Counted from the first letter of the stretch, positions 41,033 to 60,731 are shown. The stretch: 64,000 nucleotides of DNA from Acidobacteriota bacterium (GCA_003223315.1 QHYR01000253.1:53288-117287); one strand, 5' to 3'. Numbers and translations: made by a program. The notes: generated from the sequence alone by a model not told the origin.

Positions 41033-41055
41033 CCGGACAGATTTTGCCGGAAAAA

Positions 41056-41672: not shown

Positions 41673-41710
41673 GGTAGAGCTGAACAAGCCGCTCTTCTTA
41701 GGGGTCTCCG

Positions 41711-44450: not shown

Positions 44451-44686
44451 GCACGCCGCTTATTCTCGTCGCGACCCTCTGTTTTATCGAACCCGGATTC
44501 ACGTTCCTTCTGCGACGTTTGCAATATCAAGTCTGCTTGAAGCCTTTGCTCGTGTCTTGGCTTCCGTTGCTAGTGGCAGCGGTTGCGACGGCTCTGGTTA
44601 TCGCGGTGAATTCTCTCATTCAAAGCATGTGCCAGGAAGACGGCCTTTCCCCGAATGACAAATCCCAATTCAGGAGTGAACAATGA
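44447..44686 (+). CDS. Small membrane protein in the T4SS operon
   Basis: 79 aa with ATGA overlaps at both ends and two hydrophobic segments. No lipobox. Confidence 0.45.
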   Translation: MSTPLILVATLCFIEPGFTFLLRRLQYQVCLKPLLVSWLPLLVAAVATALVIAVNSLIQSMCQEDGLSPNDKSQFRSEQ

Positions 44687-45534
44687 AAGACAGAATCTCA
44701 GCTCTTACCCAGCACGCCCGTATTCAAATCGCCGCTTTAGCGGTCCTTTGTCTCTTAGGCGTGGGCTCGACACCGGCGCGCGCCGGCGCGGATGCGGCGC
44801 GCGTCGTGAAGTATTCCAACGAAGACATCGTCCCCGTCCGGGCGAAGCTCCGCTTTTCAACCCTCATCGTCCTCCCCGAGAGCGAAGAGATTCTGGACTT
44901 CACGACCGGCGACAAGGAATTCTGGATCATTAATGGCACGCACAACCTCTGCTACGTGCATCCCGCCCAAGCGGGCATTCGCAGCAATCTGAATCTCATC
45001 ACCGCAAGCGGGCACGTGTACTCGTTCCTACTGATTGAGATCAGCAAGGAGCCGAATGCCGAACCGGACCTGAAGCTATTCATCGAGCCGAAGGGCGAAT
45101 CCGGGATTGCCGGGAGCACCGGCTTGCATGGTTATGTCCGCGTGGGCGAGGCTGAAGCCTATAAGAAAGAACTCGAAGCCCTGCGTGCGCAGACCGACCA
45201 ACAGGTCCGCAGTGCCCAGGCGCAGGCCGCCGAACAGATCAACAAGTTTCGCGCCGATTACCAAGCGAAGCTCCAGTTCGACTACACACTCGACTCGAAG
45301 GCCCCGCGCGCGCCGTTCCTGGTTTCGGCGATTTACCACGACGACGCCTTTACTTACGTCAAGTGCGCCGCCCGCGAAAAGCCGACGCTGTATGAAATGA
45401 AAGACGGCAAACCCAATCTCATCAACTTCCAATTCGATAACAGCGTGTATATCGCCCCGAAAATCCTCGACAGCGGATATCTGGTTGTCGGCAAGAAGAA
45501 ACTCACATTCTCACGGCAAGTTTCCTCGAATTGA
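44683..45534 (+). CDS. virB9: T4SS outer-membrane core protein VirB9/TrbG family
   Basis: Signal peptide, then ...VVKYSNEDIVPVRAKLRFSTLIVLPESEEILDFTTGDKEFW...NLNLITASGHVYSFLL. Confidence 0.75.
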   Translation: MKDRISALTQHARIQIAALAVLCLLGVGSTPARAGADAARVVKYSNEDIVPVRAKLRFSTLIVLPESEEILDFTTGDKEFWIINGTHNLCYVHPAQAGIRSNLNLITASGHVYSFLLIEISKEPNAEPDLKLFIEPKGESGIAGSTGLHGYVRVGEAEAYKKELEALRAQTDQQVRSAQAQAAEQINKFRADYQAKLQFDYTLDSKAPRAPFLVSAIYHDDAFTYVKCAAREKPTLYEMKDGKPNLINFQFDNSVYIAPKILDSGYLVVGKKKLTFSRQVSSN

Positions 45535-45544
45535 GAGGCAAGTC

Positions 45545-46840
45545 ATGAACGAACCGATCCAGGAAAAGGCACCCAAGCCACCCGGTCTCGTACCGAAAAA
45601 CGTTCAATCGTGGCTTCTCATCGGTCTGGCCCTCTTGATGGTCACCATCATGTGGCTCACAGGCGGAAAGAAGCCGCAGTCCGCCATCAAAACCGCGAAC
45701 CCAACTTCCCCCGCACAGGCCCCTCTGGAAATCAACGAGACCCAGATCACCGAACTTCAGAAGCGTATCCAGGAATTGCAGCGCCAGCAGCTCGTCGCCC
45801 AAAGCGCTCTCGCGCAGCAGACCCGCTTGCTCGGGGCCATGCCCCAGGACTCCCAGCCTGGCCAGCAATCGAACGCCTCGGGCAATCAACCACCGGAACG
45901 CGCCGAAGACGCCATTCAGTCTGAGCGGAAAAAGCGTGAGTACCTGTCCCTGTTCGCGTCAAATGTCGCCCTGAGCTACCGCAAGTCTACGGGCACTCCA
46001 ACGCCGACGGTGACAGAACCAAGCTCGAACCCCACAGTTGCAAACTCCCCGTCTGAGGGTCCAGATGCCGCACAACTCGCACAGCTTCTGAAGGAGTTGC
46101 AGCCGATTGCCCCTCCGCAAACGGCGGCACCGCCGCCTGCTTTTTCCATCTCCACCCCAACGCAAAACGTTGCTTCGGAAACAAATAACGACAGAAAGGA
46201 GGGAGGCCCACGCCCTGCCGCCGCGCCAAGTGGGACGCATAACGCGGCGGCAGGGAAAACCTATGTTCTATTTGAGGGAACTGTTCTTGAAACGGTTCTT
46301 ATCAACCGGCTCGAAGGGCAGTTTTCCGGTCCCGTCGAATGCCTGCTCTCGACCGATGTCTATTCACATGACCGCCAGCACCTTCTGATCCCCGCCGGGA
46401 CGAAACTCCTCGGCGAGACCCGCAAGGTTGATAACTCCGGCCAGACCCGTCTCGCCGTTGTCTTCCACCGGCTCATCATGCCGGATGGTTACTCGGTGAA
46501 CCTCGATCAGTTCAAGGGCCTCGACCAGATCGGCGACACTGGTCTTCGCGACCAAGTCAACAACCACTACCTACGAATCTTCGGCGTTTCTCTTGCCGTT
46601 GGTGCTCTCGGAGCAGTGGCCCAAGCCGGTAACGGCAGCGCACTCACGGCATCCGGCAGCGACCTCATGCGCCAGGGATTCGCGTCGAGCACGGCACAGT
46701 CCTCGGCGCAAATCCTGGACAAATTCCTGAACATCATGCCCACCGTCACGATCCGCGAGGGCCACCGACTCAAAGTGTATCTCTCGGGCGATCTTGCATT
46801 GCCCGATTACAACAACCACGAGATGCCTTCAAATCTCTGA
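45545..46840 (+). CDS. virB10: T4SS core protein VirB10/TrbI family
   Basis: N-terminal TM segment, a Pro/Gln-rich linker, then ...GTVLETVLINRLEG...LLIPAGTKLLGE...RLAVVFHRLIMPDGYSV...GLRDQVNNHY. Confidence 0.85.
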   Translation: MNEPIQEKAPKPPGLVPKNVQSWLLIGLALLMVTIMWLTGGKKPQSAIKTANPTSPAQAPLEINETQITELQKRIQELQRQQLVAQSALAQQTRLLGAMPQDSQPGQQSNASGNQPPERAEDAIQSERKKREYLSLFASNVALSYRKSTGTPTPTVTEPSSNPTVANSPSEGPDAAQLAQLLKELQPIAPPQTAAPPPAFSISTPTQNVASETNNDRKEGGPRPAAAPSGTHNAAAGKTYVLFEGTVLETVLINRLEGQFSGPVECLLSTDVYSHDRQHLLIPAGTKLLGETRKVDNSGQTRLAVVFHRLIMPDGYSVNLDQFKGLDQIGDTGLRDQVNNHYLRIFGVSLAVGALGAVAQAGNGSALTASGSDLMRQGFASSTAQSSAQILDKFLNIMPTVTIREGHRLKVYLSGDLALPDYNNHEMPSNL

Positions 46841-46867
46841 AGGCGACAAAAAAAAGGAAGGAATCCG

Positions 46868-47689
46868 ATGAAAAGGAAAATTCCAGCAGTTCTCTTGGTT
46901 CTGATTCTCTGCGTTGGTACTGCCTCTGCGCAATTCGGGAGCGGTATCGTGTACGACCCGACCAACTACCACAACGCGCTGTTGCGCTACTACCAGTTGC
47001 AGCAGCACCTCATTCAATTACAGAAGAGCTACGCCAAGATCACGGGCCAGCTCAACCTCGCTATGCAGATGGCGAGGTTCGTCCAAAACATGCCCGCTCG
47101 TTACCGCGCTGTGTTTTCGCAATGGAGAAATGTGACCTCGTTGAACACTTTCGGAAACACCGGCTCTTGGATCAGCGGCATCAACTCGGGCCTCCTTCCC
47201 AACATCAACACCGGCTACCAGAGGTCTACAACCCAACTGCTCCCGTACACCGCGAACCAACTCTCAGGCATGAACGCCTTGGAACTTGCGCGCGTGCAGT
47301 CCCAGTACGCGTCCGTGGAACTCGCGGACGGCGCGAACATGAACGCGATGGCCACCATTGGCTCGATCCGCGGCAACGCCGATAGTGTCCAGACTCAAAT
47401 CGCAAACCTTGAACACGACTCGTTCTCGGATGACCCAGACCTCAACACGGAAGTTTCCGTCCTGAACAAGATCAATGCGGCGGGAGTCTTGACGCTACGC
47501 ACGCTCCAGGATTCAAACAAGCTCCTGGCGTCGCTTCTCGAACAGCAAACCATCCTCGCCAAGCAGCAACGCGAGGCCACGACTAACGCCATCAACGCCG
47601 ACATCGAGCGGCGCGCGAACCTCGCCGGCAACATGGCCCAGGTCACGAGCACGCTGACGAGTTCGCTTCAGAGTTTTCGGATGCCGTAG
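46868..47689 (+). CDS. TrbJ/VirB5-like T4SS protein
   Basis: Signal peptide, then ...GIVYDPTNYHNALLRYYQLQQHLIQLQKSY..., a TrbJ-type coiled-coil N-terminus. Confidence 0.65.
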   Translation: MKRKIPAVLLVLILCVGTASAQFGSGIVYDPTNYHNALLRYYQLQQHLIQLQKSYAKITGQLNLAMQMARFVQNMPARYRAVFSQWRNVTSLNTFGNTGSWISGINSGLLPNINTGYQRSTTQLLPYTANQLSGMNALELARVQSQYASVELADGANMNAMATIGSIRGNADSVQTQIANLEHDSFSDDPDLNTEVSVLNKINAAGVLTLRTLQDSNKLLASLLEQQTILAKQQREATTNAINADIERRANLAGNMAQVTSTLTSSLQSFRMP

Positions 47690-47725
47690 AGCAAGCCACC
47701 CAGCCGCGTCAAGGGAGCCGCAGCC

Positions 47726-48562
47726 ATGCAAACCGACTATCTGCAGTTCATCTTTCAGGCGATCAACAATCTCCTCACTCAGAATCTCGGCTTCTTCGAC
47801 GCGATGGGCCAGAACCTTTTTCGGATGTTCGCGACGATTCTCGTTGTCTGGTACGGCGTGAAGTCCGCGCTCTCCGCCGCCAGCGGCAAACACTTCCTTC
47901 ACTTCGACAACTTCGCGGCCCTTTTGCTGACGATCAGCTTCGGATTCGGGATGGTCAACTACTACAGCACTCCACTTCCCGGCATCGGCGTGAGCTTTCA
48001 CAGCCTCATTACCAACGAGTCCCAATTCCTTGCGAATAAAATCAATCAAACAGAATTGCAAACCGTTGAAGAGACAGTTGCGGACTTTGAAACTCGCATG
48101 GACTCACCCGGTTTCGGCGACATTCTGGGAACAGCCGAATATATCGTCATTACCATCCTGCTCGCGGCAGCCCAGGCCATCGCCATTGTTGTTATCGCCT
48201 ACGGATTTATCGCCACCGCAGTCTGCGTCCTGGTGGGGCCGGTCTTTGTGCCGTTCTTCATCGTTCCGAAATTGGAGTGGCTGTTCTGGGGCTGGTTCAA
48301 GGCTTTCATCCAATACGCCTTCTATCAGGTCATCGCAGCAGCGGTTGTGTACGTCATCGGGAACCTCATTCTGGGCATCCTCGACCTCGAACCGAAAGGC
48401 ACCATTTCGATAGTGCAACTCATCGAGGCTTTTCCCGTCCTTTTCATCACGTTCTTAGCTGCGATCTATGCGCTTTTGAAGATTCCCGCGCTCACCAACC
48501 ACATCTTCAGCGGCACATCGGGAGGCTCTTCGGCGGCAATTCTGGAAAAGGTGTTCGGATGA
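47726..48562 (+). CDS. virB6: T4SS inner-membrane protein VirB6/TrbL family
   Basis: 278 aa with about 6 TM segments. Its position between trbJ-like and virB8 is typical. Confidence 0.7.
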   Translation: MQTDYLQFIFQAINNLLTQNLGFFDAMGQNLFRMFATILVVWYGVKSALSAASGKHFLHFDNFAALLLTISFGFGMVNYYSTPLPGIGVSFHSLITNESQFLANKINQTELQTVEETVADFETRMDSPGFGDILGTAEYIVITILLAAAQAIAIVVIAYGFIATAVCVLVGPVFVPFFIVPKLEWLFWGWFKAFIQYAFYQVIAAAVVYVIGNLILGILDLEPKGTISIVQLIEAFPVLFITFLAAIYALLKIPALTNHIFSGTSGGSSAAILEKVFG

Positions 48563-49191
48563 ACAACGACGCGAGCTTTCAAAGTGCCAAACGCCTCTAT
48601 CTCGAACAGTACGGTGATCCCATGGTGACGAACACCTATCTCAAGATTGCGCTGGTTCTCGTCTCCCTTGTGGCCATCGGCCTGGCTCTCATGGACTTGC
48701 GCACCATTCGGACGTTCCAGAACTTCAGGCCGCTGGTGATCCGCATTGACCAACTGGGGCGGGCCGAGGCGCTCGACTATCACAATTTCGATTACAAGCC
48801 TCAGGATGCCGAGGTGCGGTACTTCCTGACCCAGTTCTGCACGCTCTACTACCGCCGGAATCGCTACACGATTCAGAACGATTTTTCGAAGTCGCTGTAT
48901 TTCCTCGACGGGAGCCTCGCGAACAGCGTCTTCGATGCCTACAAGAAGGGCGACATCATCAAGAACTTCCTCACGAACTCCTCAGCGCCTGAGATCGACA
49001 TTGATGTCAAAAACGTCGCGCTCGAAGGATTGCAGAACCCGCCTTACCGCGCTCGCGTGGACTTCGACATGGTTTATTACTCGCCCGCCGATCACAGCGA
49101 GATCAAACGCGACCTCTATACCGCCAACTTCGTGTTCCTTTTCAGGAGCCAGGTTCCCAACGCACTCATCCCCATCATCCGCTTGGAATGA
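48559..49191 (+). CDS. virB8: T4SS VirB8 family protein
   Basis: ATG 48559 overlaps the preceding stop. One TM segment, then an NTF2-like domain (...LVIRIDQLGRAEALDY...RYFLTQFCTLYYRRNRYT...). Confidence 0.75.
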   Translation: MNNDASFQSAKRLYLEQYGDPMVTNTYLKIALVLVSLVAIGLALMDLRTIRTFQNFRPLVIRIDQLGRAEALDYHNFDYKPQDAEVRYFLTQFCTLYYRRNRYTIQNDFSKSLYFLDGSLANSVFDAYKKGDIIKNFLTNSSAPEIDIDVKNVALEGLQNPPYRARVDFDMVYYSPADHSEIKRDLYTANFVFLFRSQVPNALIPIIRLE

Positions 49192-49225
49192 CGATCACCT
49201 ATTTCCGGGAAGACGAGGCATTCAA

Positions 49226-50023
49226 ATGAAAAACAGGATTCGCTTTTTGCGTGTGGAAAGGGGATGGACCCAGCAATCTCTGGCCAACCGCGTCGGGATA
49301 ACTCGCATGATGATCAGCCTCTTTGAACACTGGAGGCGCGACCCGAGCTTGGCGCTCGCCTACCGCTTCGCCGATGCGTTCGAAAAGAGGATTGACGAGG
49401 TATTCCCCCACGAACCGGAGACTCTCCGACCGGAGGAGCCAGAGGCAACGGCATCCGAACTGGAGCTCTCCTCAATCGAAACAACCCGCCCGAGACAAAA
49501 CCTCGTCCGCGCCTTACGAATCGCCAAACGTTGGTCCCAAAGAGAACTGGCGGAACGAGTGGGCGTCTCCGTGTGCACCATGAACGCCATCGAGAGGGGT
49601 TCGTGTAAACCGAGTCTCGCGCTCGCGTATGGCATTTCGCAAGTGTTGGGCGCGAGCGTTCTTGAGATCTTTCCACCCGATGCTTTCAGGAAGGTGATGC
49701 CACCTGCAGCTTCGAGCGAGGAAGCCCCCATGATTGCGAATGCTCTGATCCTGACCATCGCCATCCTGCTCGGATACGGCTTCTGGCTCATGGACCAGGT
49801 GAAGTTCATGGCCTCTTACAAGGCCGTCATCTTCCATGCCTACGGGCCGGTGCTTCTGACTGCGGTTGCCGTCCTGTTCCTGAACGTTTTTGGCGCTGCT
49901 CTGGCCATCAACCGGAGGTTCTTCCTTAAAGACACAGGACGCAAACTCTCGCACCTCGACAAACAGTTCAATGTTGGACAGACGGAGATGCCCGCTCCCT
50001 CCGACGACGAGGAGCCGAATTGA
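49226..50023 (+). CDS. Membrane-anchored regulator with two XRE-type HTH domains
   Basis: HTH 1 is LRVERGWTQQSLANRVGITRMMISLFEHWRRDPS. HTH 2 is LRIAKRWSQRELAERVGVSVCTMNAIERGSCKPS. Two C-terminal TM segments follow. Confidence 0.75.
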   Translation: MKNRIRFLRVERGWTQQSLANRVGITRMMISLFEHWRRDPSLALAYRFADAFEKRIDEVFPHEPETLRPEEPEATASELELSSIETTRPRQNLVRALRIAKRWSQRELAERVGVSVCTMNAIERGSCKPSLALAYGISQVLGASVLEIFPPDAFRKVMPPAASSEEAPMIANALILTIAILLGYGFWLMDQVKFMASYKAVIFHAYGPVLLTAVAVLFLNVFGAALAINRRFFLKDTGRKLSHLDKQFNVGQTEMPAPSDDEEPN

Positions 50024-50024
50024 G

Positions 50025-50960
50025 ATGTCCCGCGATTTCTATTCCTACGATCCGCAAGACACGCGGGATACAACCCCTCGCCGTCCTCACAGGGAGCACG
50101 AGGCGGATGTCTCTGAAACGCGCACAAACAGAGGTTCGGGAGATGCACCCCACAATGGCCGTGAAGCCCCGGAAACACTTGACCGGAATGTTCTGAAGCC
50201 CGAACGCGAAGATTCCCCTCGCGCTTACTATGTGCGCGACCGTGCGTATCTCCTCCGCGAATCTGAAATCCATACACTCAGCGAAGTGGGCCGGTTCCGC
50301 GTTGTTGCTCCGCCTGACCTCGCAAAGTACGGCTACGCCCGCGACAGTGCCCGCATGGAGCGGGATATCAGGCGGCTAAAAGAGCAGTCTCTGCTTACGG
50401 ACAAAACCCTTGAAACCTCGCAAAGACAGACGTTGCGCGTCCTCACCCTGACCAAGCAGGGGCAGCGGCTTCTCAAGAAGACGAACCGGCTCCACGAAGA
50501 CCAAGCCATCTACCACGGTTTGGTAAAGCCGCGAGAGGCAAAACACGACGCCGATTTGTATCGCCTTTATCACAAGGAAGCCGCCCGGATCGAACGCGCT
50601 GGCGGCAGGCCGGTGCGCGTCATTCTGGACTACGAACTGAAGCGAGACCTCAATCGAGACCTAGCCGCGCTCGGGCCAGACAAAGACGACCCTGATGCGA
50701 AGGAATTGATCGCCGAAAAGCACAGGCTTCGTGTCGTCAACGGCAAGATTCCCGTGCCCGACGTTCGCATTGAGTACGAGACCGCACAGCGTGAACTCAG
50801 CCGCGTGGACCTGGAACTGGCAACGAGCCACTACCGGCCTCGGGGATTGGCTGCAAAAGCCAAGGCGGGATTCTCCCTCTACAGCCGCCCCGAAGACGCA
50901 TCCCGTCTGCGCCGCATTCTGAACGACCAGGACCTTACCGCAGGAATCCTTGCGCTATGA
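50025..50960 (+). CDS. Replication-relaxation (Replic_Relax)-like protein
   Basis: 311 aa. ...LLRESEIHTLSEVGRFRVV...LKEQSLLTDKTL... looks like a wHTH, and ...KHDADLYRLY...VPDVRIEYE... looks nuclease-like. The family call is from memory of PF13814 features and is tentative. Confidence 0.45.
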   Translation: MSRDFYSYDPQDTRDTTPRRPHREHEADVSETRTNRGSGDAPHNGREAPETLDRNVLKPEREDSPRAYYVRDRAYLLRESEIHTLSEVGRFRVVAPPDLAKYGYARDSARMERDIRRLKEQSLLTDKTLETSQRQTLRVLTLTKQGQRLLKKTNRLHEDQAIYHGLVKPREAKHDADLYRLYHKEAARIERAGGRPVRVILDYELKRDLNRDLAALGPDKDDPDAKELIAEKHRLRVVNGKIPVPDVRIEYETAQRELSRVDLELATSHYRPRGLAAKAKAGFSLYSRPEDASRLRRILNDQDLTAGILAL

Positions 50961-51964
50961 ACATCTCTTCTTCCCATCTCAACGCCTTGAAAGCATTCGG
51001 CTACACCGAGGACGAAGCGCGGTTTCTTTACATCGTTGCGACCCACTCGGGCTACTTTGTGGCGCGTCAATTCCTTGCCTTCACCGAAGCTCATTGGGGC
51101 AAACGAACAACCACCTTTTGGGACAAACTCCACACGAAGAAACACGCCCGCACGGAATGTTTTCCGAAGAGCGGAGTCATCTATCACCTCTTCTCGCGGA
51201 AGCTCTACCGCCAGATCGGACGAGAGAACCTTCGCAACCGCCGCGAACATGAAATCGAATTCATCCGGCAACGCATCGCAATCCTCGATTTTGTCCTCGC
51301 AAATCAACAGCGGACGTACCTCGAAACCGAGCCAGAAAAGGTCCGCTATTTCTGCGATCAACTGAAGGTGCCCAATCACTTTCTGCCCGCGAAAACCTAT
51401 CACGGACAGCGAACCTCCCAGCCAACCGTTCGCTATTTCGTGGACAAGTTCCCGATGTCCCTTGGCAATGAAGTCTCCTCCTCCCCTGTGGTGACGTTCA
51501 CATACATCCAGGGGGCCGAGGCAAGCCTGACCGATTTTGTTCACCACCTGGAAGCCTACCTGCCGCTCTTCCGGCAGCTTTCCGAGTTCCGATTCCTGTA
51601 CCTCGCCCGGACAGATTCCCACTTCGAAAAGGCAAAGGAACTGTTCGACTCCCTCATCACAATTCCGCTCGAATCCGACGCGACGAAGGACATCCTCCGG
51701 TACTTCCACATTCGCAAGGCTTGGGATCTCAAGCAATACCCTACCCTGACCGAAGGTGACCTGATTTTCCGAAATGACGCCAAGGGGCGGTTCGCCGGGG
51801 ATCGATTCGAGCACCTGTATCGCGGATGGAAGGCCGCGCGAGTGACAGAGGCGAACATCCGTCAGGAGTTCGGCGGAGACGGCCTCCATCACACGGTGCA
51901 TTTTGCCGTGCAAGTCCTTGGACGGGTCGCCGCAGCGGACGGCGAACCCACCGAAAAAGGGTGA
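50957..51964 (+). CDS. Hypothetical protein (335 aa), possibly a second Replic_Relax-like protein
   Basis: ATGA overlap with the upstream gene. ...LNALKAFGYTEDEARFLYIVATHSGYFVARQF.... Confidence 0.45.
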   Translation: MNISSSHLNALKAFGYTEDEARFLYIVATHSGYFVARQFLAFTEAHWGKRTTTFWDKLHTKKHARTECFPKSGVIYHLFSRKLYRQIGRENLRNRREHEIEFIRQRIAILDFVLANQQRTYLETEPEKVRYFCDQLKVPNHFLPAKTYHGQRTSQPTVRYFVDKFPMSLGNEVSSSPVVTFTYIQGAEASLTDFVHHLEAYLPLFRQLSEFRFLYLARTDSHFEKAKELFDSLITIPLESDATKDILRYFHIRKAWDLKQYPTLTEGDLIFRNDAKGRFAGDRFEHLYRGWKAARVTEANIRQEFGGDGLHHTVHFAVQVLGRVAAADGEPTEKG

Positions 51965-52007
51965 AGAGGATAGAAACGATGTGCTGCACCTTTTTCTTCA
52001 CCACTTT

Positions 52008-52199
52008 CTGCACCCTGGGTGCAGCGAAGTCTTTGACCGAGAGAGCAATAGAAACGCAGCAAGGAGAAAAGACGCCGTGGAAAAAACACCAAATCGGGCG
52101 GGAGCGACCCCACTTTTTCGGCCTTCAGCCGCCCAAGTGAACCGTGGGGTCGCTCCCGCCCTCCGGCACAGATGACTGTGCCAGGTGTTTTTTCCACGG
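52008..52199. promoter_or_regulatory. Candidate oriT: cluster of nested perfect inverted repeats
   Basis: Palindrome CTGCACCC-t-GGGTGCAG is at 52008-52024. The outer 16-bp IR pairs 52075-52090 with 52184-52199. The inner 18-bp IR pairs 52096-52113 with 52144-52161. The hairpin GGCACAG-atga-CTGTGCC is at 52165-52182. Confidence 0.5.
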
Positions 52200-52247
52200 T
52201 GACGGAGAAAGGCACAAGGCAAGTCAAAACATCCGAGGAGGAATGAA

Positions 52248-52490
52248 ATGTCCATCATCAAGAAAGCACCGGCAATCAAGACCCGCGAAGTTCATCTCGA
52301 AGAACCCGTCAACGAGCTGCTCGAAGACTATGCCCGGTTCATCGAAAGCACCCCGGACCACGTTCTGAATGCGGCCCTGAAGAAGGTCCTCTGGCGGGAC
52401 CAGGACTACCGGAAGTGGAGAGACCAGCGCCGCAACGCTCAGTCCGGTTCTGAGAAGACACAGCCCGTGGACACAAGGGTAAGGACATGA
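52248..52490 (+). CDS. Small hypothetical protein (80 aa) upstream of the coupling protein
   Basis: A GAGGAGG RBS precedes the start. The stop overlaps an ATG at 52487 as ATGA. Confidence 0.5.
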   Translation: MSIIKKAPAIKTREVHLEEPVNELLEDYARFIESTPDHVLNAALKKVLWRDQDYRKWRDQRRNAQSGSEKTQPVDTRVRT

Positions 52491-52599
52491 TCCAACGGAT
52501 TCTCCATTCGCGCGGCTTTGTCTCGGCTCTGCTGGCGATGGGCACGGGAGTCTTTCTCTATTACACGCACCGTTTCCCGCAGACCAGATCTTCCTGCGC

Positions 52600-54483
52600 G
52601 TGATCGCCATGCGTGCCCCCCATGCCTTCCTGAGCTTCCAGTACCTCTACAACATCGTCCTGTTCACAACGCCGTTCATGGTCTTTTCAGCCGTGCTTTC
52701 GGGCCTCTACATCTTCACGTTGAAAGTCCGTCGGCACATCTCGCCGGGCCGCCTCCCCCGGTATCCCGACCCACGCAAAAGGAACGAGCTTTATCTCACG
52801 GTCGGCGAGGTTCACAACCCTCGCAAACCGGGACCATCCGAGACCCCGCGATGGCTCACCATTCCCGAACGCGGATTGTTCACCGGGATTGCGATTTTCG
52901 GTGCTGTGGGAAGCGGCAAGACGAGCTGCTGCATGTACCCGTTTGCCGAGCAGACTCTTGCCTACAAAGCAGCGGACAAAGAGGAGCGAATCGGCGGTCT
53001 CATCCTCGAAGTCAAAGGAGACTTTTGCCGCAAGGTGAAGGGCATTCTCGACCGCCACGAACGGGGTGAGGATTACATCGAAATCAGCCTCGATTCCGAA
53101 TACCGATACAATCCCCTCCACAACGACCTGGATGCCTACGCGCTGGCCTTCAGCATCGCGTCCCTGTTGAACAACCTCTTTGGCCGTGGCAAGGAACCTT
53201 TCTGGCAGCAGGCGTACACGAACCTCGTCAAGTTCATCATCCTTCTTCATAAGGTCGCCTACAACTATGTGACCCTTTTCGATGTCTACCAGTGCGCCAT
53301 CTCGCCAACGATTCTGGAAGAGAGGATTCGCGAGGCCGAAGAGATCGTCTTGGGACGCCACTATGTGGCCATCAAGCCAGATGTCTTTGGAGCGCGCACG
53401 GCGGACCTCGCTGGACATGGATTCGTTCACGATCCCAAAGAAGACCGCTATCTCGCCCCGGCCACCCCGCAACTCCGCGAGACGCTGCAAAACAGGGGAA
53501 TCGGCTTCGAGTCCCGGAGCGTCCTCGACCCCGCGCAAGCCGACGCCGACAAGCTCGAACAACTGGAAGCCGTCAAGCGTTGGTTCAATGACGACTGGAA
53601 ACGCATCGAGCCGAAGCTGCGGACCTCCATCGTCGAGGGAATCTCCGTCTTCCTTTCTCTCTTCGACGACAACCCGAAAGTGAAGAAAGTCTTTTGCCCG
53701 AAGAAGGAGTGCTACGACCCCGCAAAGAACGTCAACAATATCTATGGCAAGCCCCTTCCTTCATTCTCCTGGCTCATTGAAAAGGGCAAGGTTTGCGCCC
53801 TCAATTTTCCCATCGGGATGAACCCAGGACTCGCGAAGGCTCTCGGCGTCATGATGAAGCTCGATTTTGAACGCGCCGTCCTCAACCGCGTTCCTGAAAT
53901 CGAAGCTCACCCAGAGCGGTATTTCAGGCAGGTCCTCTTCCTCTGCGATGAGTACCAGCACTTCGCAACCGTGGGCGAAAACGACCCCACAGGCGACGAG
54001 AAATTCTTCAGCCTCTCGCGCCAGCCGAAATGCATCCCCATCATCGCCACGCAGAGCATCAGTTCGCTCAAATCCGCCCTGCCGGGGGATAGCTGGCGCA
54101 CGCTCTTGCAAACTTTCCGCACGAAGATTTTCCTCGCGCTTTCGGATGATTTCTCCGCTCGCACTGCGAGCGAGCTTTGCGGACGGGAAGACAAGCTCAA
54201 GGTCAGCTACAACCTCTCGGAGAGCGGCCACGACGCCAGAGTGAGTCTGCTCACCGGGAAGGCCGTCTCACACAAGGCCAACATCACGGCATCGAAGAGC
54301 TACAACACGCAAAGCGACTACCGCTTCGACATGAAGACATTCACCGAGTTGCGCAACGCGCAATCGGTGACGATTGCCTACGACGGCTTGAATCCGATGC
54401 CGCCCATGTTCTGCTACCTGAAGCCCTACTTCAACGATCCGAACAAGTCTTACTTCAAGCAGCTCGCGGAAGGAGGCCTGTGA
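52600..54483 (+). CDS. virD4: Type IV coupling protein VirD4/TraG family (5' end uncertain; see finding)
   Basis: Walker A is FGAVGSGKTSCCMYPF. The 627-aa product is a large NTPase, with ...LFLCDEYQHFAT... as a Walker B-like motif. A likely first TM segment lies in another frame at 52487-52603. Confidence 0.85.
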   Translation: MIAMRAPHAFLSFQYLYNIVLFTTPFMVFSAVLSGLYIFTLKVRRHISPGRLPRYPDPRKRNELYLTVGEVHNPRKPGPSETPRWLTIPERGLFTGIAIFGAVGSGKTSCCMYPFAEQTLAYKAADKEERIGGLILEVKGDFCRKVKGILDRHERGEDYIEISLDSEYRYNPLHNDLDAYALAFSIASLLNNLFGRGKEPFWQQAYTNLVKFIILLHKVAYNYVTLFDVYQCAISPTILEERIREAEEIVLGRHYVAIKPDVFGARTADLAGHGFVHDPKEDRYLAPATPQLRETLQNRGIGFESRSVLDPAQADADKLEQLEAVKRWFNDDWKRIEPKLRTSIVEGISVFLSLFDDNPKVKKVFCPKKECYDPAKNVNNIYGKPLPSFSWLIEKGKVCALNFPIGMNPGLAKALGVMMKLDFERAVLNRVPEIEAHPERYFRQVLFLCDEYQHFATVGENDPTGDEKFFSLSRQPKCIPIIATQSISSLKSALPGDSWRTLLQTFRTKIFLALSDDFSARTASELCGREDKLKVSYNLSESGHDARVSLLTGKAVSHKANITASKSYNTQSDYRFDMKTFTELRNAQSVTIAYDGLNPMPPMFCYLKPYFNDPNKSYFKQLAEGGL

Positions 54484-55317
54484 TGAACGGATTCGAGATG
54501 ATTCTTCCTTTCCTCAAACCTATCGAGCACCTCATCCTCGACGACTCCATCAGCGAAGTCATGGTAAACGGACCGGACCAGGTGTTCATCGAGAAGGCTG
54601 GCTTCCTGCAGCAGGTCAAGGGTGTCTCACTCGGGGAGAAATCTCTAATGGTCGCCGTGAAGAACATCGCCCGGCGTCTGGGCAACGACATCTCGGAATC
54701 GAAGCCTATTCTCGACTCGCGATTGCCGGACGGCAGCCGAGTCGCTGCGGTCATCCCGCCGTGCAGTTTGAGCGGAGTCACTCTGACGATCCGCAAGTTC
54801 AATACGCGGCATTTCGAGATGCAGGACCTCATCAATGCCGGCACGCTCGACCGATCGCTCGCCAACCGTCTTGAGGATTATGTAGTTCATCCCGGAGGAC
54901 CAACGAATCCTTCTCATTGAGGACACGGCTGAGATTCAAATGGTCCAGCCGAACCTTGTCCGGTTCGAGGCCCGGCAAGCACAGAACGGTATCCCGGCAG
55001 TGGCGATCCGCGACCTCCTGAGGGCCGCCCTCCGGCATCGCCCGGACCGCATCATTCTCGGCGAGATTCGTGGGGGCGAGGCCTTCGACCTTTTGCAACT
55101 CCTGAACACGGGCCATTCGGGGACGCTTTCAACCATTCATGCGAACTCCGCTCGGCAAGGACTTGCCCGGTTCACGAGCTGCGTTCTACAGAGCGGAGTG
55201 GACCTGCCTTACCGCGCCATCAAGGCCAACATCGGCGAATCACTCAATGTGGTTATCCAGATCGAACGGAGACCGGGACGCAGGTTCATTTCGGAAGTCC
55301 TAAATCAACGGCTATGA
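54483..55317 (+). pseudogene. virB11: VirB11-type traffic ATPase with internal deletion removing Walker A
   Basis: The N-domain runs MNGFEMILPFLKPIEHL...TLTIRKFN... to ...LEDYVVHPGG. The frame then changes at about 54898-54903 to QRILLIEDTAEIQ...ILGEIRGGEAFDLLQLLNTGHSGTLSTIHAN. The GxGKT segment is absent. Confidence 0.75.
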
Positions 55318-55374
55318 CCCCGACGCCGACCTCTACGACTTCGGCGCTGTCTCCCTGGCAAAGCGAGAGCATAC

Positions 55375-56265
55375 GTGACCGGAGATTCCCAATTCACACC
55401 AAAGCCCCTGTCAGCTTCGGAGTACGCCCTGGCACTCTTCGAGCCTTCGGACAATGTAGCAGTCTTGCTTCGAAATCGCAGGACTGGCCAAACGGTGCAA
55501 CGAATCACAACGGCGGAAACCGTGGCAAGTCCAGAATTCCAATCCTCGCTGAGACGGGAGAACTCCGCTGGCGCGGACATTTTCATAGGAATGAACCCGA
55601 TCAAGGACGGCGCCTACAGCCGGACGAAGAGCAACATCCGGGAAATTCGCCATCTCTATCTCGACCTCGACACGAATGGTCACGAGGCCGTGGAGTCCAT
55701 TCGCAACTCGCCCGAAGTTCCCGCACCGAACTTCATCCTCGATACCTCTCCCGACAAACACCAGGTCGTTTGGAGAGTCGAAGGACTAGACCAAAAGCAG
55801 GCTGAGTCAATGCTACGCACCATGGACGATCAGTTTGGCGGCGATCCTGCAGCGACCGACTCCACGCGAGTTTTGAGGCTGCCGGGTTTCGCCAACAAAA
55901 AGTACGACGAGGAATTCGTTGTTCAGGTCCTCCACGAATCGAACCAGGTTTATCACTCCCGCGATTTCATGGTTCAGGAGGATTCGCCCGACACATCCCG
56001 CCATCTGGGGGACAAATCCGGGCGGAGATTGTCACAGGGACACAAGAGCCAGTCCGAACAGGATTGGGCCTACGCCAAGCGCGCCCTCGCCCGTGGCGAC
56101 GACCCGGCACTCGTCATCCAGCGGATCGCCGACTTCCGCGCCGACGACAAGCAAGACCCCGAATACTACGCACAACACACCGTCGCCAAAGCCCAAGCGC
56201 AAATAGAAAACAACAATGACCACGTGCAACCCGAAATTGCAGAGAGAATCGACGTGAAGCGTTGA
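55375..56265 (+). CDS. RepB-type DNA primase domain protein
   Basis: ...ADIFIGMNPI...IRHLYLDLDTNG...ILDTSPDKHQVVWRV...GGDPAATDSTRVLRLPGFANKKY matches RSF1010 RepB'-like primase motifs. Confidence 0.7.
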   Translation: MTGDSQFTPKPLSASEYALALFEPSDNVAVLLRNRRTGQTVQRITTAETVASPEFQSSLRRENSAGADIFIGMNPIKDGAYSRTKSNIREIRHLYLDLDTNGHEAVESIRNSPEVPAPNFILDTSPDKHQVVWRVEGLDQKQAESMLRTMDDQFGGDPAATDSTRVLRLPGFANKKYDEEFVVQVLHESNQVYHSRDFMVQEDSPDTSRHLGDKSGRRLSQGHKSQSEQDWAYAKRALARGDDPALVIQRIADFRADDKQDPEYYAQHTVAKAQAQIENNNDHVQPEIAERIDVKR

Positions 56266-56277
56266 TTCGTAACTCCT

Positions 56278-56532
56278 ATGCCCATCATGACGTCTCTCTC
56301 AAAAACAACCGCTTCGATATCCAGTGGCGTTCCGCTGCTCACTCCCGGTGAGGTCGCCCAGATTACGGGCCTGTCAATCGAAACATTGGCACAGTGGCGA
56401 AGTCAGCGCCGAGGCATTCCTTTCGTCAAAGTGAGCCGTAACTGTGTGCGGTATCGTCAATCTGATCTTGACCGCTGGCTTGAAGAACGCATAGTGTCGG
56501 TTGTTGTTGGCACAACAACAGACAGGAGGTAG
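56278..56532 (+). CDS. Excisionase/AlpA-like HTH DNA-binding protein
   Basis: ...LLTPGEVAQITGLSIETLAQWRSQRRGIPFVKVSRNCVRYRQSDLDRWLEE. Confidence 0.75.
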   Translation: MPIMTSLSKTTASISSGVPLLTPGEVAQITGLSIETLAQWRSQRRGIPFVKVSRNCVRYRQSDLDRWLEERIVSVVVGTTTDRR

Positions 56533-56537
56533 ACCTA

Positions 56538-57650
56538 ATGTCGGTATACAAACGCGGGAGTCTCTGGTGGTACAAATTCCAATTTCAGGGACGCTCGATT
56601 CGAAAACCTACAAAGTTCACAAATAGAACGGCAGCCCTGCGAGCTGAGGCTAAGCACAAGGCAGATCTACTCGACCGGCGCGCTGGCCTGTCACAGAAAA
56701 AGATCGCACCAAAGTTTGAAGAATACGTGAAGGAGTTCTTAGCTTGGTCCAAGCAGCACCACAGGCCAAAGACGACAGCACTCCACAGCACAAACTGCGA
56801 CACGTTGCTGCGCTTTTTCAAAGGCCATTGGCTGGACGAAATCGACCAGGCCGCAGTGGAGCGCTACAAATCTGATCGCCTAAAAGAGGATCGCCGCAAT
56901 GCTGACGACGGGAGCAAGGTCACCGGAGCGACGGTCAATCGGTCGCTGACCACACTGAAGTTGATGTTCGGGCGAGCTGAGAAATGCGGTTTTGGCGTCT
57001 CCAATCCGGTTCGTGGTGTAGCCTATTTGCCAGAGTCTACTGGTCGCATCCGGGTCGTCAGCTTCCAGGAAGAGCTAGCCTATCTTTCAAAAGCCAGCCA
57101 GCCGTTACGAGACATCGCACAGACCATCCTAGACACAGGGCTGCGGCCAGAGGAAGTATTTCGAATTCGAGTTGAGAACATCGACTTCGCCGCGCGCACC
57201 ATCTTCAACCCATTTGGAAAGACCAAAGCCGCGCGCCGGACCGTCACGATGACCGAGGCTGTTTGGACCGCGCTGAAGCGACGAGCGAAGATGGCCAAAG
57301 GAAGCTATGTATTTCCGTCTGAGAAACACCCGGATCGACCCATAGGCTGCGTGCGCAAGGGGCACAACGCCGCAATACGCCGTGCTGGTATCAAGCCGCA
57401 TTTTGTCTTGTACGACATGCGTCACACATTTGCAACGCGAGCGGTAACGGCTGGAGTCGATCTCCCAACTCTGAGCGCAATGCTGGGCCACACTTCAATA
57501 ACGATGACCATGCGATACGTTCATCCGGCAGCAGAACAGAAACGGTTGGCCGCTGCGAAGCTGGAGAGCTTCCGCATCAACGGTCTAATTGAGGCCGCAA
57601 GCGAACAAGCAGTGGGTACAAATATGGGCACAGTCGCTCAGGTCAACTAA
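56538..57650 (+). CDS. int: Tyrosine site-specific integrase
   Basis: MSVYKRGSLWWYKFQFQGRSIRK..., ...LRPEEVFRI... and ...YDMRHTFATRAVTAGVDLPTLSAMLGHTSITMTMRYVHP. Confidence 0.9.
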   Translation: MSVYKRGSLWWYKFQFQGRSIRKPTKFTNRTAALRAEAKHKADLLDRRAGLSQKKIAPKFEEYVKEFLAWSKQHHRPKTTALHSTNCDTLLRFFKGHWLDEIDQAAVERYKSDRLKEDRRNADDGSKVTGATVNRSLTTLKLMFGRAEKCGFGVSNPVRGVAYLPESTGRIRVVSFQEELAYLSKASQPLRDIAQTILDTGLRPEEVFRIRVENIDFAARTIFNPFGKTKAARRTVTMTEAVWTALKRRAKMAKGSYVFPSEKHPDRPIGCVRKGHNAAIRRAGIKPHFVLYDMRHTFATRAVTAGVDLPTLSAMLGHTSITMTMRYVHPAAEQKRLAAAKLESFRINGLIEAASEQAVGTNMGTVAQVN

Positions 57651-57862: not shown

Positions 57863-58825
57863 CTAGCAGGAGAAGGGGTCTGGGGAAGGGGACGGCATTT
57901 GAGTCTCCTTCCCCAGCAGTCCTTTAGAAGTCTTTTTGTTGTTCTCTTCGTTCTCAAAAAACTCCATCGTCGCGCTTCGAGATGCGGCCTGGCACTCAGC
58001 CTTTCGCTCGAATTCTTCCGGAGATCGATAGCCCAACGCCGAGTGCAACCGCTGCCGATTGTAATACCGCTCCATGAACTCTTCGATGTTCGTCCGTAAA
58101 TGTTCTAGGTTCTCGTACTTGTTGGTGTAGATTTCTTCCCGCTTCAGCGTCTTGATGAAGCTTTCGCAGCTGGCATTGTCGTAGGGGTTCGCCGGCCGAC
58201 TCATGCTCGGAATCATGTGGTACTTCTCGAGGATGGCTATATATTCCGCGCGAGCGTATTGAAACCCCCGATCCGAGTGATGCACCAGGCCGGGTTCGGG
58301 CTGTCGGCACTCGATGGCTTGCTCCAGCGCCCCGATCGTTAGTCGAATGGCCAAAGTTCGATCCAGTGCCCAGCCCACCACTTTGCGTGAGAACCCATCG
58401 AGGATCACCGCCAAGTAGACAAATTCCGCCTTCAGCCGAATGTAGGTGATGTCCGCTACCCACAGCTGATTGATCCCGCGCAGCTTCATCCGAGCAGCTA
58501 AGTTCAGATATACCTCGAACTTGTGGTTCGAGTCCGTGGTGACCTTGAACCGCTTCGGCTGTAGGGCCAGCAGGTTATCTTCCCGCATGATCCGCACCAC
58601 CCGTTTGTGGTTTATCTGCATTCCTCGACGGCGCAGCTCCGCGGTGATTCGCCGATAGCCGTAGCGGCGGCGATGCTCCAAGGCAATTTGTTGGATCGCA
58701 GATCGCACTTCCATCTCTTCCTCAACAGGTTGCTGTTCCTGCAGCGACCGGTAAAAGCCCCGGCGGCTGACCGGCACCATCTGACACATGCGCCCGATAC
58801 TCAGGCTGCCTTGCAATGACATCAC
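57863..58825 (-). CDS. IS3 transposase OrfB (DDE integrase core), probably expressed as an OrfAB fusion by -1 frameshift
   Basis: ...WVADITYI...HHSDRGFQY...NASCESFIKTLKRE.... The -1 frame is open from the T TTT TTC heptamer (reverse complement of 58909-58915) in orfA. Confidence 0.85.
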   Translation of the reverse strand: MMSLQGSLSIGRMCQMVPVSRRGFYRSLQEQQPVEEEMEVRSAIQQIALEHRRRYGYRRITAELRRRGMQINHKRVVRIMREDNLLALQPKRFKVTTDSNHKFEVYLNLAARMKLRGINQLWVADITYIRLKAEFVYLAVILDGFSRKVVGWALDRTLAIRLTIGALEQAIECRQPEPGLVHHSDRGFQYARAEYIAILEKYHMIPSMSRPANPYDNASCESFIKTLKREEIYTNKYENLEHLRTNIEEFMERYYNRQRLHSALGYRSPEEFERKAECQAASRSATMEFFENEENNKKTSKGLLGKETQMPSPSPDPFSC

Positions 58826-59163
58826 TTCTCGGATCTGGTCGTAGATGCCATTTCGCCAGAGCCGCTGTTGCGCTGGCGTCGAGCCTCGATTTTTTGCAAG
58901 GCACCTTTGAAAAAATCCACCTCCAGGGTCTTCTCTGCCAAAAGCTGCTTCAAGCGATGGATTTCCTTGCGGTGAGCTGACGCGTGCGTGCTGGGCCGCG
59001 ATGCTTCTTGTCCTGCTTCAACCATCTCCAGCTTCCTACGCCACTTGTAGAGGCACCTCGGTCGTACCCCGAGTTCTCGCGCTAACTCACCGACATCTTC
59101 ACAAGTCTCCATCCGTGCGACAGCCATTCGCTGAAATTTCCGGGAGTATCGCTTTCTCTCCAC
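58822..59163 (-). CDS. IS3 transposase OrfA (HTH)
   Basis: MERKRYSRKFQRMAVARMETCEDVGELARELGVRPRCLYKWRRKLE..., followed by a leucine-zipper-like tail. Confidence 0.85.
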   Translation of the reverse strand: MERKRYSRKFQRMAVARMETCEDVGELARELGVRPRCLYKWRRKLEMVEAGQEASRPSTHASAHRKEIHRLKQLLAEKTLEVDFFKGALQKIEARRQRNSGSGEMASTTRSEK

Positions 59164-59648: not shown

Positions 59649-60731
59649 TCAGCCGGACCAAGTATTGCGGCGGAGGTCCTTCCAGGGACCGCCATCCGCG
59701 TAGCGCTCCGGATATAGGACCCTAGAACGCGGGTCTTCCGCAGTGTCAAGCTGAAGGACCATCCACTTCGGATACGGAACGCCTGGATCCGACGCTGCGT
59801 CCAAGAGCTGGACTTCGTCGTCCGAGAGTCGAAGGTCGACAGCACGAATGTTATCCTCCAGTTGCTCGATCTTCCGGCCGGCGACGATCACACTGCTGAC
59901 GGCTGGCCGTCCCAGCACCCACGAAAGCGCCACGCGGGCCGGGCTTGTATCATGTCGGCCCGCGACTTCCTTCAGCGTTTCCACGACGCGGTAGCCCATC
60001 TCCTTGTCGAAGGGCACGAACGAACCTGCCTCCGCGAATCGAGTGCCGACAGGAGCGGGGTTAGTGCGGCTGTACTTCCCTGTAAGGAAGCCGCCGGCAA
60101 GCGGGCTCCAAACCAGGATGCCGATATTGTAGTACTCCGCGAACGATTGGAACTCGTATTCGAGACCGCGACCGACGAGGCTGTAGTACATCTGCGCCGT
60201 TACGTATCTTTCCAACCCAAGGTGCTCCTGGAGCATAACCGCGGTTGCCGCTTGCCATGACATCAAGTTGGAGAGCCCGATGTAGCGGACCTTACCCTGG
60301 CGGACAATATCGTCGAGGGTTCTCAGCGTCTCCTCGAGTGGCGTGTTGCTGTCCCATCCATGCACCTGGTAAAGATCAATGTAATCGGTCTGCAGTCGTT
60401 TTAGACTGCCCTCTACTTCGCGCATGATGTTCACGCGGGTCGCGCCACTTCGGTTGAAATTCTCGCTCATGGGGAGCCGGACCTTGGTCGCTAAAACGAT
60501 CTCTTGCCTCACATCCCTCAAGGCATTACCCACCAGAGTCTCGCTTTCTCCAAGGCTGTATACGTCCGCTGTATCGATGAAGTTGATTCCGCTGTCGAGG
60601 GCTACCTTCACCATCCGCATTGCGTCCTCTTGACCGAGGTTGCCCATATTCATCCTGCCGCCAAACTGCATCGTGCCAAGGGCCACTTCGCTCACGATCA
60701 GCCCGGTATTCCCCAGTTTTCTATACCTCAT
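59649..60731 (-). CDS. Aldo/keto reductase
   Basis: MRYRKLGNTGLIVSEVALGTMQFGG...DTADVYS...YIDLYQVH..., 360 aa. Confidence 0.9.
   Translation of the reverse strand: MRYRKLGNTGLIVSEVALGTMQFGGRMNMGNLGQEDAMRMVKVALDSGINFIDTADVYSLGESETLVGNALRDVRQEIVLATKVRLPMSENFNRSGATRVNIMREVEGSLKRLQTDYIDLYQVHGWDSNTPLEETLRTLDDIVRQGKVRYIGLSNLMSWQAATAVMLQEHLGLERYVTAQMYYSLVGRGLEYEFQSFAEYYNIGILVWSPLAGGFLTGKYSRTNPAPVGTRFAEAGSFVPFDKEMGYRVVETLKEVAGRHDTSPARVALSWVLGRPAVSSVIVAGRKIEQLEDNIRAVDLRLSDDEVQLLDAASDPGVPYPKWMVLQLDTAEDPRSRVLYPERYADGGPWKDLRRNTWSG

Follow-up and report, generated by a model that had tools for sequence, protein, structure and literature searches.

The module between virB8 and virD4

A stretch of 64,000 nucleotides from an Acidobacteriota bacterium (GCA_003223315.1 QHYR01000253.1:53288-117287), hereafter the window, within which all coordinates are given, carries a compact integrative conjugative element (ICE, ~15-17 kb) that is damaged in this copy and belongs to a family very common in Acidobacteriota. 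The genes of interest, designated P1 and P2, lie together with a structured intergenic region and a gene for an 80-aa protein between the type IV secretion system (T4SS) genes and virD4. An initial annotation, made from the sequence alone, had described the T4SS as nearly complete and the element as lacking a recognisable relaxase, with tandem Replic_Relax-like genes in its place as part of a non-canonical DNA-processing module. Pfam matches in the window include VirB2/TrbC, VirB3, VirB4, VirB9/CagX, VirB10/TrbI, VirB6/TrbL and VirB8, as well as a VirD4-type coupling protein, VirB11/T2SSE, RepB_primase, an HTH_17 excisionase and a tyrosine integrase. The T4SS gene set is as it was described, but a deletion in virB11 and a frameshift in virD4 mean that this copy is not intact.

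P1 (50025-50960, plus strand), the gene of a 311-aa candidate MOBC-like relaxase, starts with an ATG at 50025 that is preceded by AGGAG and ends with a TGA at 50958-50960; it is coupled to the gene upstream, the stop codon of which (50021-50023) ends one base before the P1 start. P2 (50957-51964, plus strand) encodes a constant partner of 335 aa, begins with the ATG at 50957 and overlaps P1 by ATGA (50957-50960), which bears out the translational coupling proposed for the pair. The 80-aa gene (52248-52490, plus strand), a candidate for a relaxosome accessory, finishes with an ATGA at which virD4 of related elements begins; its annotated coupling to the coupling protein region is confirmed by this overlap of its stop codon with the ancestral virD4 start. 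The primase reported farther downstream is also present, as a RepB'-type primase gene (55375-56265, plus strand) with a catalytic and a C-terminal helical domain (PF16793, E=4.8e-28; PF22448, 2e-4).

Relaxase profiles are the usual test of whether a T4SS locus is conjugative or 'MOB-less'. The canonical classes considered here were MOBF/P/Q/V/H/B (HUH or HD), MOBT (Rep_trans) and MOBM (tyrosine recombinase-like), and the evidence sought was a Relaxase, TrwC, MobA_MobL, Mob_Pre, TraI_2 or Rep_trans domain of Pfam or an HUH signature with a catalytic tyrosine. No relaxase, Rep_trans or FtsK/TcpA-type domain was identified by Pfam in the open reading frames (ORFs) of at least 60 aa scanned between 29 and 62 kb, and neither the variable left arm (36.4-41.3 kb), when translated in all six frames, nor the precomputed Pfam domains of neighbouring genes in three related contigs (L001-L003) contained one. 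By these scans, the element has no recognisable canonical relaxase, in agreement with the initial claim.

A scan of the species representatives of GTDB revealed 195 loci, nearly all of them in metagenome-assembled genomes (MAGs) of Acidobacteriota (Acidiferrales/Acidoferrales, Terriglobia), and gene order was compared in 80 of these loci. The order is near-invariant: virB4-B9-B10-x-B6-B8, a small membrane protein gene, P1, P2, a spacer of ~200-280 nt, a small gene, virD4, virB11 and the RepB primase gene, with virD4 syntenic in 68 loci and the primase in 62; contigs from JGI and NCBI have the same module order. P1 and P2 change more rapidly (45-95% identity) than do VirB4, VirD4 and VirB11 (70-100%), and several MAGs contain two or three copies (L008/L009/L011, L026/L032/L064, L015/L018). 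The synteny from P1 and P2 through the spacer and the small gene to virD4 extends across nearly all of the 80 loci, and the DNA-processing module of the initial annotation holds as a conserved arrangement. It does not hold as new machinery, since the Replic_Relax family (PF13814) is the MOBC relaxase superfamily (PMC5357655); the relaxase would be of a known non-HUH kind and not a new category. MOBC relaxases are related to PD-(D/E)XK nucleases, possess an N-terminal winged helix-turn-helix (wHTH) domain, and have no reported covalent intermediate (PMC12857230).

P1 and the Replic_Relax family

More than 3,538 homologues of P1 exist at 90% clustering, and 1,355 clusters exist at 50% identity (E<=1e-3). 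The homologues of P1 and P2 are nearly all named 'hypothetical' and none has a precomputed Pfam domain, while some sources name P1 homologues 'PadR family transcriptional regulator'; a tblastn search of 72,556 plasmids with P1 and P2 produced no match. Pfam, NCBIfam and PHROGs detected nothing in P1 beyond weak wHTH matches. When 49 diverse homologues were scanned, PadR was matched in seven and MarR_2 in two, and the profile matches of P1 to MarR and PadR proteins of the PDB lie over residues 93-158. In the alignment of the 49 homologues, residues G89, F91 and R92 of the wHTH domain are invariant or nearly so, as are H174, D175, Y179, E204, P245, D246, E250, Y251, E264, Y270, K278, G282, F283 and Y286 of the C-terminal half.

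An AlphaFold2 model of P1 computed from the same alignment has a mean predicted local distance difference test score (pLDDT) of 84.7, exceeding 90 in the core. Residues 1-60 are disordered in the model, a MarR/PadR-like winged helix occupies residues ~66-153, and the C-terminal domain (residues 169-301) consists of a helix (169-191), a strand (195-201), two inserted helices, two more strands (247-252 and 258-266), a helix (272-280) and a final strand (284-287). This predicted order, alpha-beta-beta-beta-alpha-beta, is that of PD-(D/E)XK nucleases, and the conserved residues H174, E204, D246, D262/E264, Y270 and K278 are placed on these elements of the model. The winged-helix N-domain that had been proposed for P1 from its sequence is borne out, and the proposed nuclease-like core agrees with the predicted topology, the motifs quoted at the time being near-invariant among the 49 homologues.

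When the model was compared by Foldseek with structures of the PDB, ~80 residues could be superposed on PadR proteins with a root-mean-square deviation of 2-3 Å and a template modelling (TM) score of 0.6-0.67. A comparison with the predicted viral structures of BFVD returned four full-length matches (E 3.4e-7 to 6.5e-6, probability 1.00, 270-330 columns), two of which are named as proteins of the Bacillus phages G and JL. The match to gp146 of phage G (E=6.6e-7, probability 1.00, 274 aligned columns, TM 0.47/0.53) is informative because gp146 (L087:5063-5884, minus strand) is a member of PF13814 (89.4 bits, E=4.1e-25) and of PHROG 9381, 'replication initiation by nicking', with phage relatives annotated as 'plasmid replication-relaxation protein'; the JL protein belongs to the same PF13814 / PHROG 9381 family. 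The comparison of folds that had been suggested as a check on P1 thus yields a full-length match to a Replic_Relax protein.

The MOBC reference systems were TraX of Enterococcus faecalis pAD1/pTEF1 and MobC of CloDF13; the CloDF13 record NC_002119, being old and frameshifted, was not used as a source of MobC. The motif residues can be followed in order through TraX of pTEF1, gp146 and P1: a histidine in a helix (H102, H134 and H174), a glutamate (E129, E157 and E204), the aspartate of a (P)D motif (D152, D174 and D246), and an acid-x-acid pair (E170/E172, E191/D193 and D262/E264). Beyond this pair, each protein has lysine (K176, K204-205 and K278), and TraX and P1 have a tyrosine (Y181 and Y270) to which no gp146 residue was assigned. 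Residues required by TraX were reportedly identified by Francia in 2013, and the same residues sit at those positions in the pTEF1 protein. Alignment of the P1 family by hhalign with the TraX family covered the wHTH domain only (probability 8%, E=0.0043), and its alignment with six phage Replic_Relax proteins was weak and covered the wHTH domain and the His helix (probability 15%, E=0.0018), the control of the TraX family against the phage family giving a probability of 88.6% (E=2.7e-6). Insignificant hhalign alignments nevertheless set the PD of P1 on TraX D152, its DLE on EIE and Y270 on Y181. Judged by its predicted structure, P1 belongs to the Replic_Relax/MOBC superfamily but has diverged so far that the current Pfam model does not reach it.

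P2 and fusions of P1

P2 has 3,255 homologues and follows P1 directly in 77 of the 80 loci, the pairing being kept where P1 is only about 31-35% identical. Its 36 invariant residues include H98, D111, E123, E125, K128, D163 and several tyrosines, of which H98, E123 and D163 are replaced in a distant P2-like protein (L091). P2 has no match in Pfam, NCBIfam, PHROGs or the sequences of the PDB, and a concatemer of 13 P2 homologues has none in PF13814. A fragment match to DUF6822 that recurred for P2 was disregarded, as it came from non-independent copies.

All alignments of P2 by hhalign with TraX, gp146, the phage family and P1 were insignificant (E=0.17-0.6), although two of them independently set D163 on the PD aspartate and the strand 'VVTFTYIQ' at the acid-x-acid strand of the family; if these alignments hold, P2 would be a catalytically degenerate paralogue. 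An AlphaFold2 model made from homologues that are all at least 73% identical reached a pLDDT of 41, in which the N-terminus is predicted with low confidence to be wHTH-like (helix-helix-helix-strand-strand). Because the comparisons are insignificant and the model is of this quality, the initial description of tandem Replic_Relax-like genes can be kept for P1, through its structural match to gp146, but not for P2.

Tandem modules do occur as natural fusions of two P1-like sequences, P0252 (600 aa, L089) and P0342 (506 aa, L091:917-2437), and in P0252 at least, the first module is without the PD and acid-x-acid residues. Fusion to a degenerate first copy hints that P1-type proteins act as dimers or pseudodimers. 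At L091, the fusion gene, the P2-like gene and a RepB primase gene are contiguous, with no coupling protein gene between them, and are followed by two ArdC genes.

The intergenic region and the 80-aa protein

The 283-nt intergenic region (51965-52247) folds as DNA with a minimum free energy of -69.6 kcal/mol (z = -7.5; none of 200 shuffled sequences folded as well) and contains nested inverted repeats (52075-52199), a perfect one of 18 bp (52096-52113 / 52144-52161) lying inside a perfect one of 16 bp (52075-52090 / 52184-52199), so that the strong structure noted after P1 and P2 is real. A third hairpin of 7 bp (52165-52182) is followed by a T-run. The inner arms, GGGC(G/T)GGAGCGACCCCAC, are conserved above the level of the flanking proteins, and the nested repeats are kept in about 65 loci. 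In an alignment of 46 sequences, 88% of cells pair, and 19 pairs and 106 cells are altered on both sides, a level of covariation reached by 0 of 500 shuffles; slid controls gave 7-28 cells, which is 3- to 13-fold lower. An interpretation of the inverted repeats as RNA was rejected, as wobble cells of the G:T kind (55) and of the A:C kind (64) occur equally often; together with the lack of any Rfam family between 49 and 58.5 kb, this absence of strand bias indicates an element that acts at the level of DNA. On the strength of its folding and covariation, it is a candidate origin of transfer (oriT) with its nic region and/or a single-strand initiation site (ssi).

The 30-nt loop of the inner hairpin (52114-52143) is itself conserved, with the consensus TTTTTCGGCTTTCAGCCGCCCAAAAAG, and can fold a further mini-hairpin, CGGC-TTTCA-GCCG; this loop is a plausible place for the nick or for a recognition site.

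Upstream of the hairpins lies an array of five heptamers YTKCACC (51960-52024), a candidate binding site for the wHTH domain of P1 and/or P2. Three direct copies on the plus strand are phased at 12 nt (51984-51990, 51996-52002 and 52008-52014) and are flanked by two inverted copies on the minus strand (51960-51966 and 52018-52024), giving five copies in 65 nt compared with 37 in the entire 64-kb window. Of 63 loci, 33 have a triple repeat with 12+12-nt phasing in the corresponding position, whereas only 1 of 315 shuffled sequences does. Each clade has its own form of the heptamer (CTKCACC, CTYCACC, GTTCACC, CGGTTCA), as would be expected if a specificity site evolved together with the protein that binds it. 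The nested inverted repeats lie 60 nt downstream of the array, a layout that fits an oriT; array and repeats together probably constitute one, and the hairpins could additionally serve the RepB'-type primase.

The gene of the 80-aa protein is conserved in 70 of the 80 loci, with residues E14, Y28, F31, I32, D37, H38, N41, W57 and R58 invariant. The protein has no sequence match in Pfam, NCBIfam, PHROGs or the PDB, but its strand-helix-helix pattern suggests that it may be ribbon-helix-helix-like.

Comparison with known systems

MOBC relaxases and P1 have in common a MarR-like winged helix at the N-terminus and a PD-(D/E)XK-type domain at the C-terminus (predicted in the case of P1), the arrangement of catalytic-type residues (His helix, Glu, (P)D, acid-x-acid, Tyr/Lys), a gene that adjoins that of a VirD4-type coupling protein, and short direct repeats located tens of bp from a large inverted repeat, a layout that is known at the P1 locus from sequence alone. 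In pAD1, TraX binds direct repeats 70-120 bp from nic (PMC12857230), a description with which the layout of array and hairpins at the P1 locus agrees. P1 is unlike the MOBC relaxases in its failure to match PF13814 and the 8% probability of its alignment with the TraX family, in its disordered N-terminal tail of 60 aa, in the obligatory coupled 335-aa partner P2, for which no MOBC counterpart has been described, and in its setting, since it occurs in Acidobacteriota within MPF_T ICEs of the Gram-negative type.

The P1 model is matched best by the phage Replic_Relax proteins of PHROG 9381 (phage G gp146, SPO1 gp27.3, JL gp149), which have the same motif order and the weak profile signal given above. 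They differ from P1 in sequence (9-12% identity) and presumably in function, which would be phage replication, and their genes adjoin that of a large P-loop NTPase instead of a T4SS. In the Bacillus phages SPO1 (L092), JL (L093) and Sophrita (L095), the Replic_Relax gene is directly downstream of, and often overlaps, the gene of this very large P-loop NTPase (SPO1 gp27.4, JL gp150 'MsbA-like', Sophrita gp248), a pairing that recalls that of a relaxase with its coupling ATPase.

Plasmid RSF1010 (IncQ) has a RepB' primase, iterons and the ssiA/ssiB palindrome. The element resembles it in possessing a RepB'-type primase, here encoded three genes downstream, and direct repeats with a large palindrome in one intergenic region. 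It differs in that Pfam identified no MOBQ MobA, RepA helicase or RepC initiator among the element genes, and in that its primase is a separate protein of 296 aa, not fused to a relaxase. Of the domains that define an IncQ-type replicon, RepB_primase alone is present among the element genes according to Pfam.

A candidate relaxase and the alternatives

The most likely role of P1, put forward with roughly even confidence, is that of the element's relaxase, of a divergent MOBC/Replic_Relax type, acting in a module with P2, the cis site and the 80-aa protein; we infer its relaxase activity, the identity of the oriT and what P2 and the 80-aa protein contribute from the comparisons above. The 12-nt-phased heptamer array (51960-52024) would be recognised by the P1 winged helix, either by itself or together with P2, and the nuclease domain would nick a single strand within the nested inverted repeat (52075-52199) or next to it, some 60-115 nt from the array. 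Nicking would employ H174, E204, D246, D262/E264 and K278, and Y270 would take the place that Y181 has in TraX. The ribbon-helix-helix-like 80-aa protein and P2 may assist the assembly of the complex and its hand-over to VirD4, and the RepB'-type primase may prime synthesis of the complementary strand, possibly on the same hairpins.

Several observations weigh against this role. P1 does not match PF13814 at E<=0.1, nor does a concatemer of 17 homologues, and only one of the 49 diverse homologues touched the model when scanned singly (E=0.0099), whereas the positive controls, the TraX-like protein of pTEF1 (E=2e-6) and gp146 (E=4.1e-25), matched it clearly. Of the two Pfam models by which the locus was to be checked, PF16793 thus matched the primase and PF13814 matched neither P1 nor P2. 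Because the hidden Markov model reaches neither protein, the link of P1 to PF13814 consists of a predicted structure and a weak profile-profile signal, the hhalign probabilities for P1 (8% with the TraX family and 15% with the phage family) being low. The lysine of TraX, K176, has no counterpart in register, the aligned position of P1 being S268. The 50 PDB matches of the P1 model listed by Foldseek are wHTH regulators only, with no solved PD-(D/E)XK nuclease among them, and the nuclease fold is therefore deduced from the predicted topology, the conserved residues and the similarity to a Replic_Relax structure that is itself predicted. Not every Replic_Relax protein is a relaxase; those of phages are annotated as replication nickases. 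The copy in the window cannot itself prove function, because its virB11 and virD4 are broken. Finally, the 7-bp hairpin with its T-run scores as an intrinsic terminator.

The last point would also be expected if P1 and P2 were PadR/MarR-type regulators of the T4SS/virD4 operon, with the intergenic region as an operator combined with a terminator or attenuator and a T4SS that is MOB-less or served by a relaxase in trans. The direct database matches of P1 are only to PadR/MarR regulators, and some of its homologues are so named. A regulator, however, has no need for a C-terminal domain of 140 residues with an invariant H/E/PD/DxE/Y/K set, and the full-length match to Replic_Relax nickases and the lack of an RNA-like strand bias in the inverted repeats also count against this reading; moreover, the occurrence of a multi-copy family with integrase, coupling protein, primase and anti-restriction genes indicates a self-transmissible DNA element. 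Regulation as the whole function of P1 and P2 is very unlikely. It is just as improbable that P2 is the catalytic relaxase, of a novel fold, and P1 an oriT-binding accessory or specificity factor. P2 is conserved like P1 and always paired with it, has no counterpart among the known families in searches of Pfam, NCBIfam, PHROGs and PDB sequences, and has 36 invariant residues, with His, Asp, Glu, Lys and several Tyr among them, but P1 retains the complete acidic/His/Lys/Tyr set in Replic_Relax order, whereas P2 has no HUH motif, Rep_trans or recombinase signature, its model has a pLDDT of 41, and H98, E123 and D163 are replaced in the P2-like protein of L091.

A more serious rival, though a doubtful one and not exclusive of a role for P1 in transfer, is that the module functions in replication instead of, or besides, conjugation: P1 and P2 would be an initiator whose wHTH binds the heptamers, and the hairpins would be an origin or ssi for the primase on the excised circle. 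These proteins would then either act as the relaxase in addition, as the MOBT protein NicK of ICEBs1 does, or have no relaxase function. Consistent with replication, P1 is similar in structure to phage proteins that carry the annotation 'replication initiation by nicking', direct repeats and a large palindrome beside a RepB'-type primase recall oriV of RSF1010, the P1 fusion, P2-like and primase genes of L091 are contiguous without a coupling protein between them, and the unbiased wobble pairs imply that either strand could form the hairpins. On the other hand, in about 70 of the 80 loci the module belongs to the T4SS operon and immediately precedes virD4, the start of which is overlapped by the small gene; the element genes include no RepA-type helicase or RepC-type initiator by Pfam; and an ICE with a complete T4SS and coupling protein needs a relaxase, for which there is no other candidate.

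A bolder version of the relaxase hypothesis, which appears unlikely, is that P1 and P2 are an undescribed obligate two-protein relaxase in which P1 is the PD-(D/E)XK nickase and P2 a partner with a new fold that would add something not known from MOBC enzymes, for example a hold on the 5' end (covalent or not) or the signal recognised by VirD4. If true, the pair would constitute a MOB family of its own and explain thousands of T4SS elements of soil Acidobacteriota that seem to be without a relaxase, and it might show how a relaxase of the restriction nuclease type pilots DNA through a T4SS.

A very large family that has been given no name beyond 'hypothetical' or 'PadR regulator' seems to supply the relaxase that was missing from a compact, widespread and often multi-copy ICE family in a phylum that is among the dominant but least tractable of soil. 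If so, the poorly understood MOBC relaxases would be extended to diderm MPF_T systems, a profile of the family could reclassify many 'MOB-less' T4SS loci of soil, a defined oriT candidate would be available for genetic tools in Acidobacteriota, and the constant partner protein would offer a system in which to ask how non-HUH relaxases pass DNA to the coupling protein.

Other genes of the element and lesions in this copy

The T4SS block (41358-49191) is MPF_T-like, and its gene order is repeated in related loci. All of its genes are on the plus strand: virB2 (41358-41672, TrbC), virB3 (41711-42010, VirB3), virB4 (42000-44450, P-loop_TraG/CagE_TrbE_VirB), a small ORF (44447-44686), virB9 (44683-45534, CagX), virB10 (45485-46840, TrbI), a gene placed by position as virB5 (46868-47689), virB6 (47726-48562, TrbL) and virB8 (ending at 49191, VirB8), the domains named being those of Pfam. 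The gene between virB8 and P1 (49226-50023, plus strand) encodes two HTH_3 domains (Pfam) and a C-terminal membrane segment. Its C-terminal part was detected by tblastn in 76 of the 80 loci; many relatives have only a membrane protein of ~97 aa (e.g. L001:9706-9999), and the two extra N-terminal HTH_3 domains occur in the window and some relatives.

Downstream of the 80-aa gene and on the same plus strand are virD4 (52487-54483, the intact part of the ORF being 52600-54483; TrwB_AAD_bind and TraG-D_C by Pfam), the disrupted virB11 (54480-55317; two T2SSE fragments in different frames), the primase gene, an HTH_17 excisionase gene (56278-56532, Pfam) and a tyrosine integrase gene (56538-57650, Pfam). 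The core from 41.0 to 56.3 kb is completely filled by these genes. The integrase is a normal phage-type integrase with its excisionase adjoining, and this module (56278-57650) is variable, being absent from the region shared with the closest relatives. No attL/attR direct repeats were found around the element and no tRNA genes in the window.

Lesions were called by alignment with the three closest relatives (L014, L007 and L006). L014 is 92.8% identical in nucleotide sequence over a homology that spans 41035-56270, and the homology to L014 and L007 stops at about 56200-56270. In virB11, a 74-nt deletion at 54883/54884 has taken out the Walker A region, a further 2 nt are deleted near 55300, and positions 133-196 of the T2SSE profile are missing; the intact protein of relatives has 332 aa. 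In virD4, a 1-nt deletion near 52570 separates the first ~38 codons (from the ATG at 52487) from the ORF 52600-54483, whereas the gene of relatives encodes 665 aa starting at the stop codon of the small gene. One nucleotide is also deleted at the end of virB8 (49177). The P1 and P2 genes and the cis region are undamaged. Errors of a long-read assembly could account for the single-base lesions but are a less likely explanation of the 74-nt deletion; the copy in the window is either a decaying element or a sequence with assembly errors.

To the left of the T4SS genes are an N-terminally truncated ArdC-like anti-restriction gene with an in-frame stop (about 38140-38950, plus strand; ArdcN and an M78-like peptidase motif), crossed by long minus-strand ORFs that are probably shadows, and genes of an orphan N6/N4 DNA methylase (39101-39895) and a sigma-70 region-4-like protein (40165-40689). 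These three look like the leading region of a conjugative element. Farther left, three tyrosine recombinase genes in a row (33340-34257, 34254-35243 and 35156-36238, plus strand) adjoin a gene of an XRE-type helix-turn-helix protein (32305-32766, minus strand) and may be a separate element or the left end of a composite island. On the right side, an IS3-family transposase gene (57863-59163, minus strand; HTH_21 and rve) comes directly after the element integrase, followed by the host genes of an aldo/keto reductase (59649-60731) and a DUF3300 protein (61079-62122). Between the recombinase genes and the ArdC-like gene, the 19-nt unit GCGGAAGAGTTGCGGCTGC is perfectly duplicated in tandem (two copies, 36951-36988).

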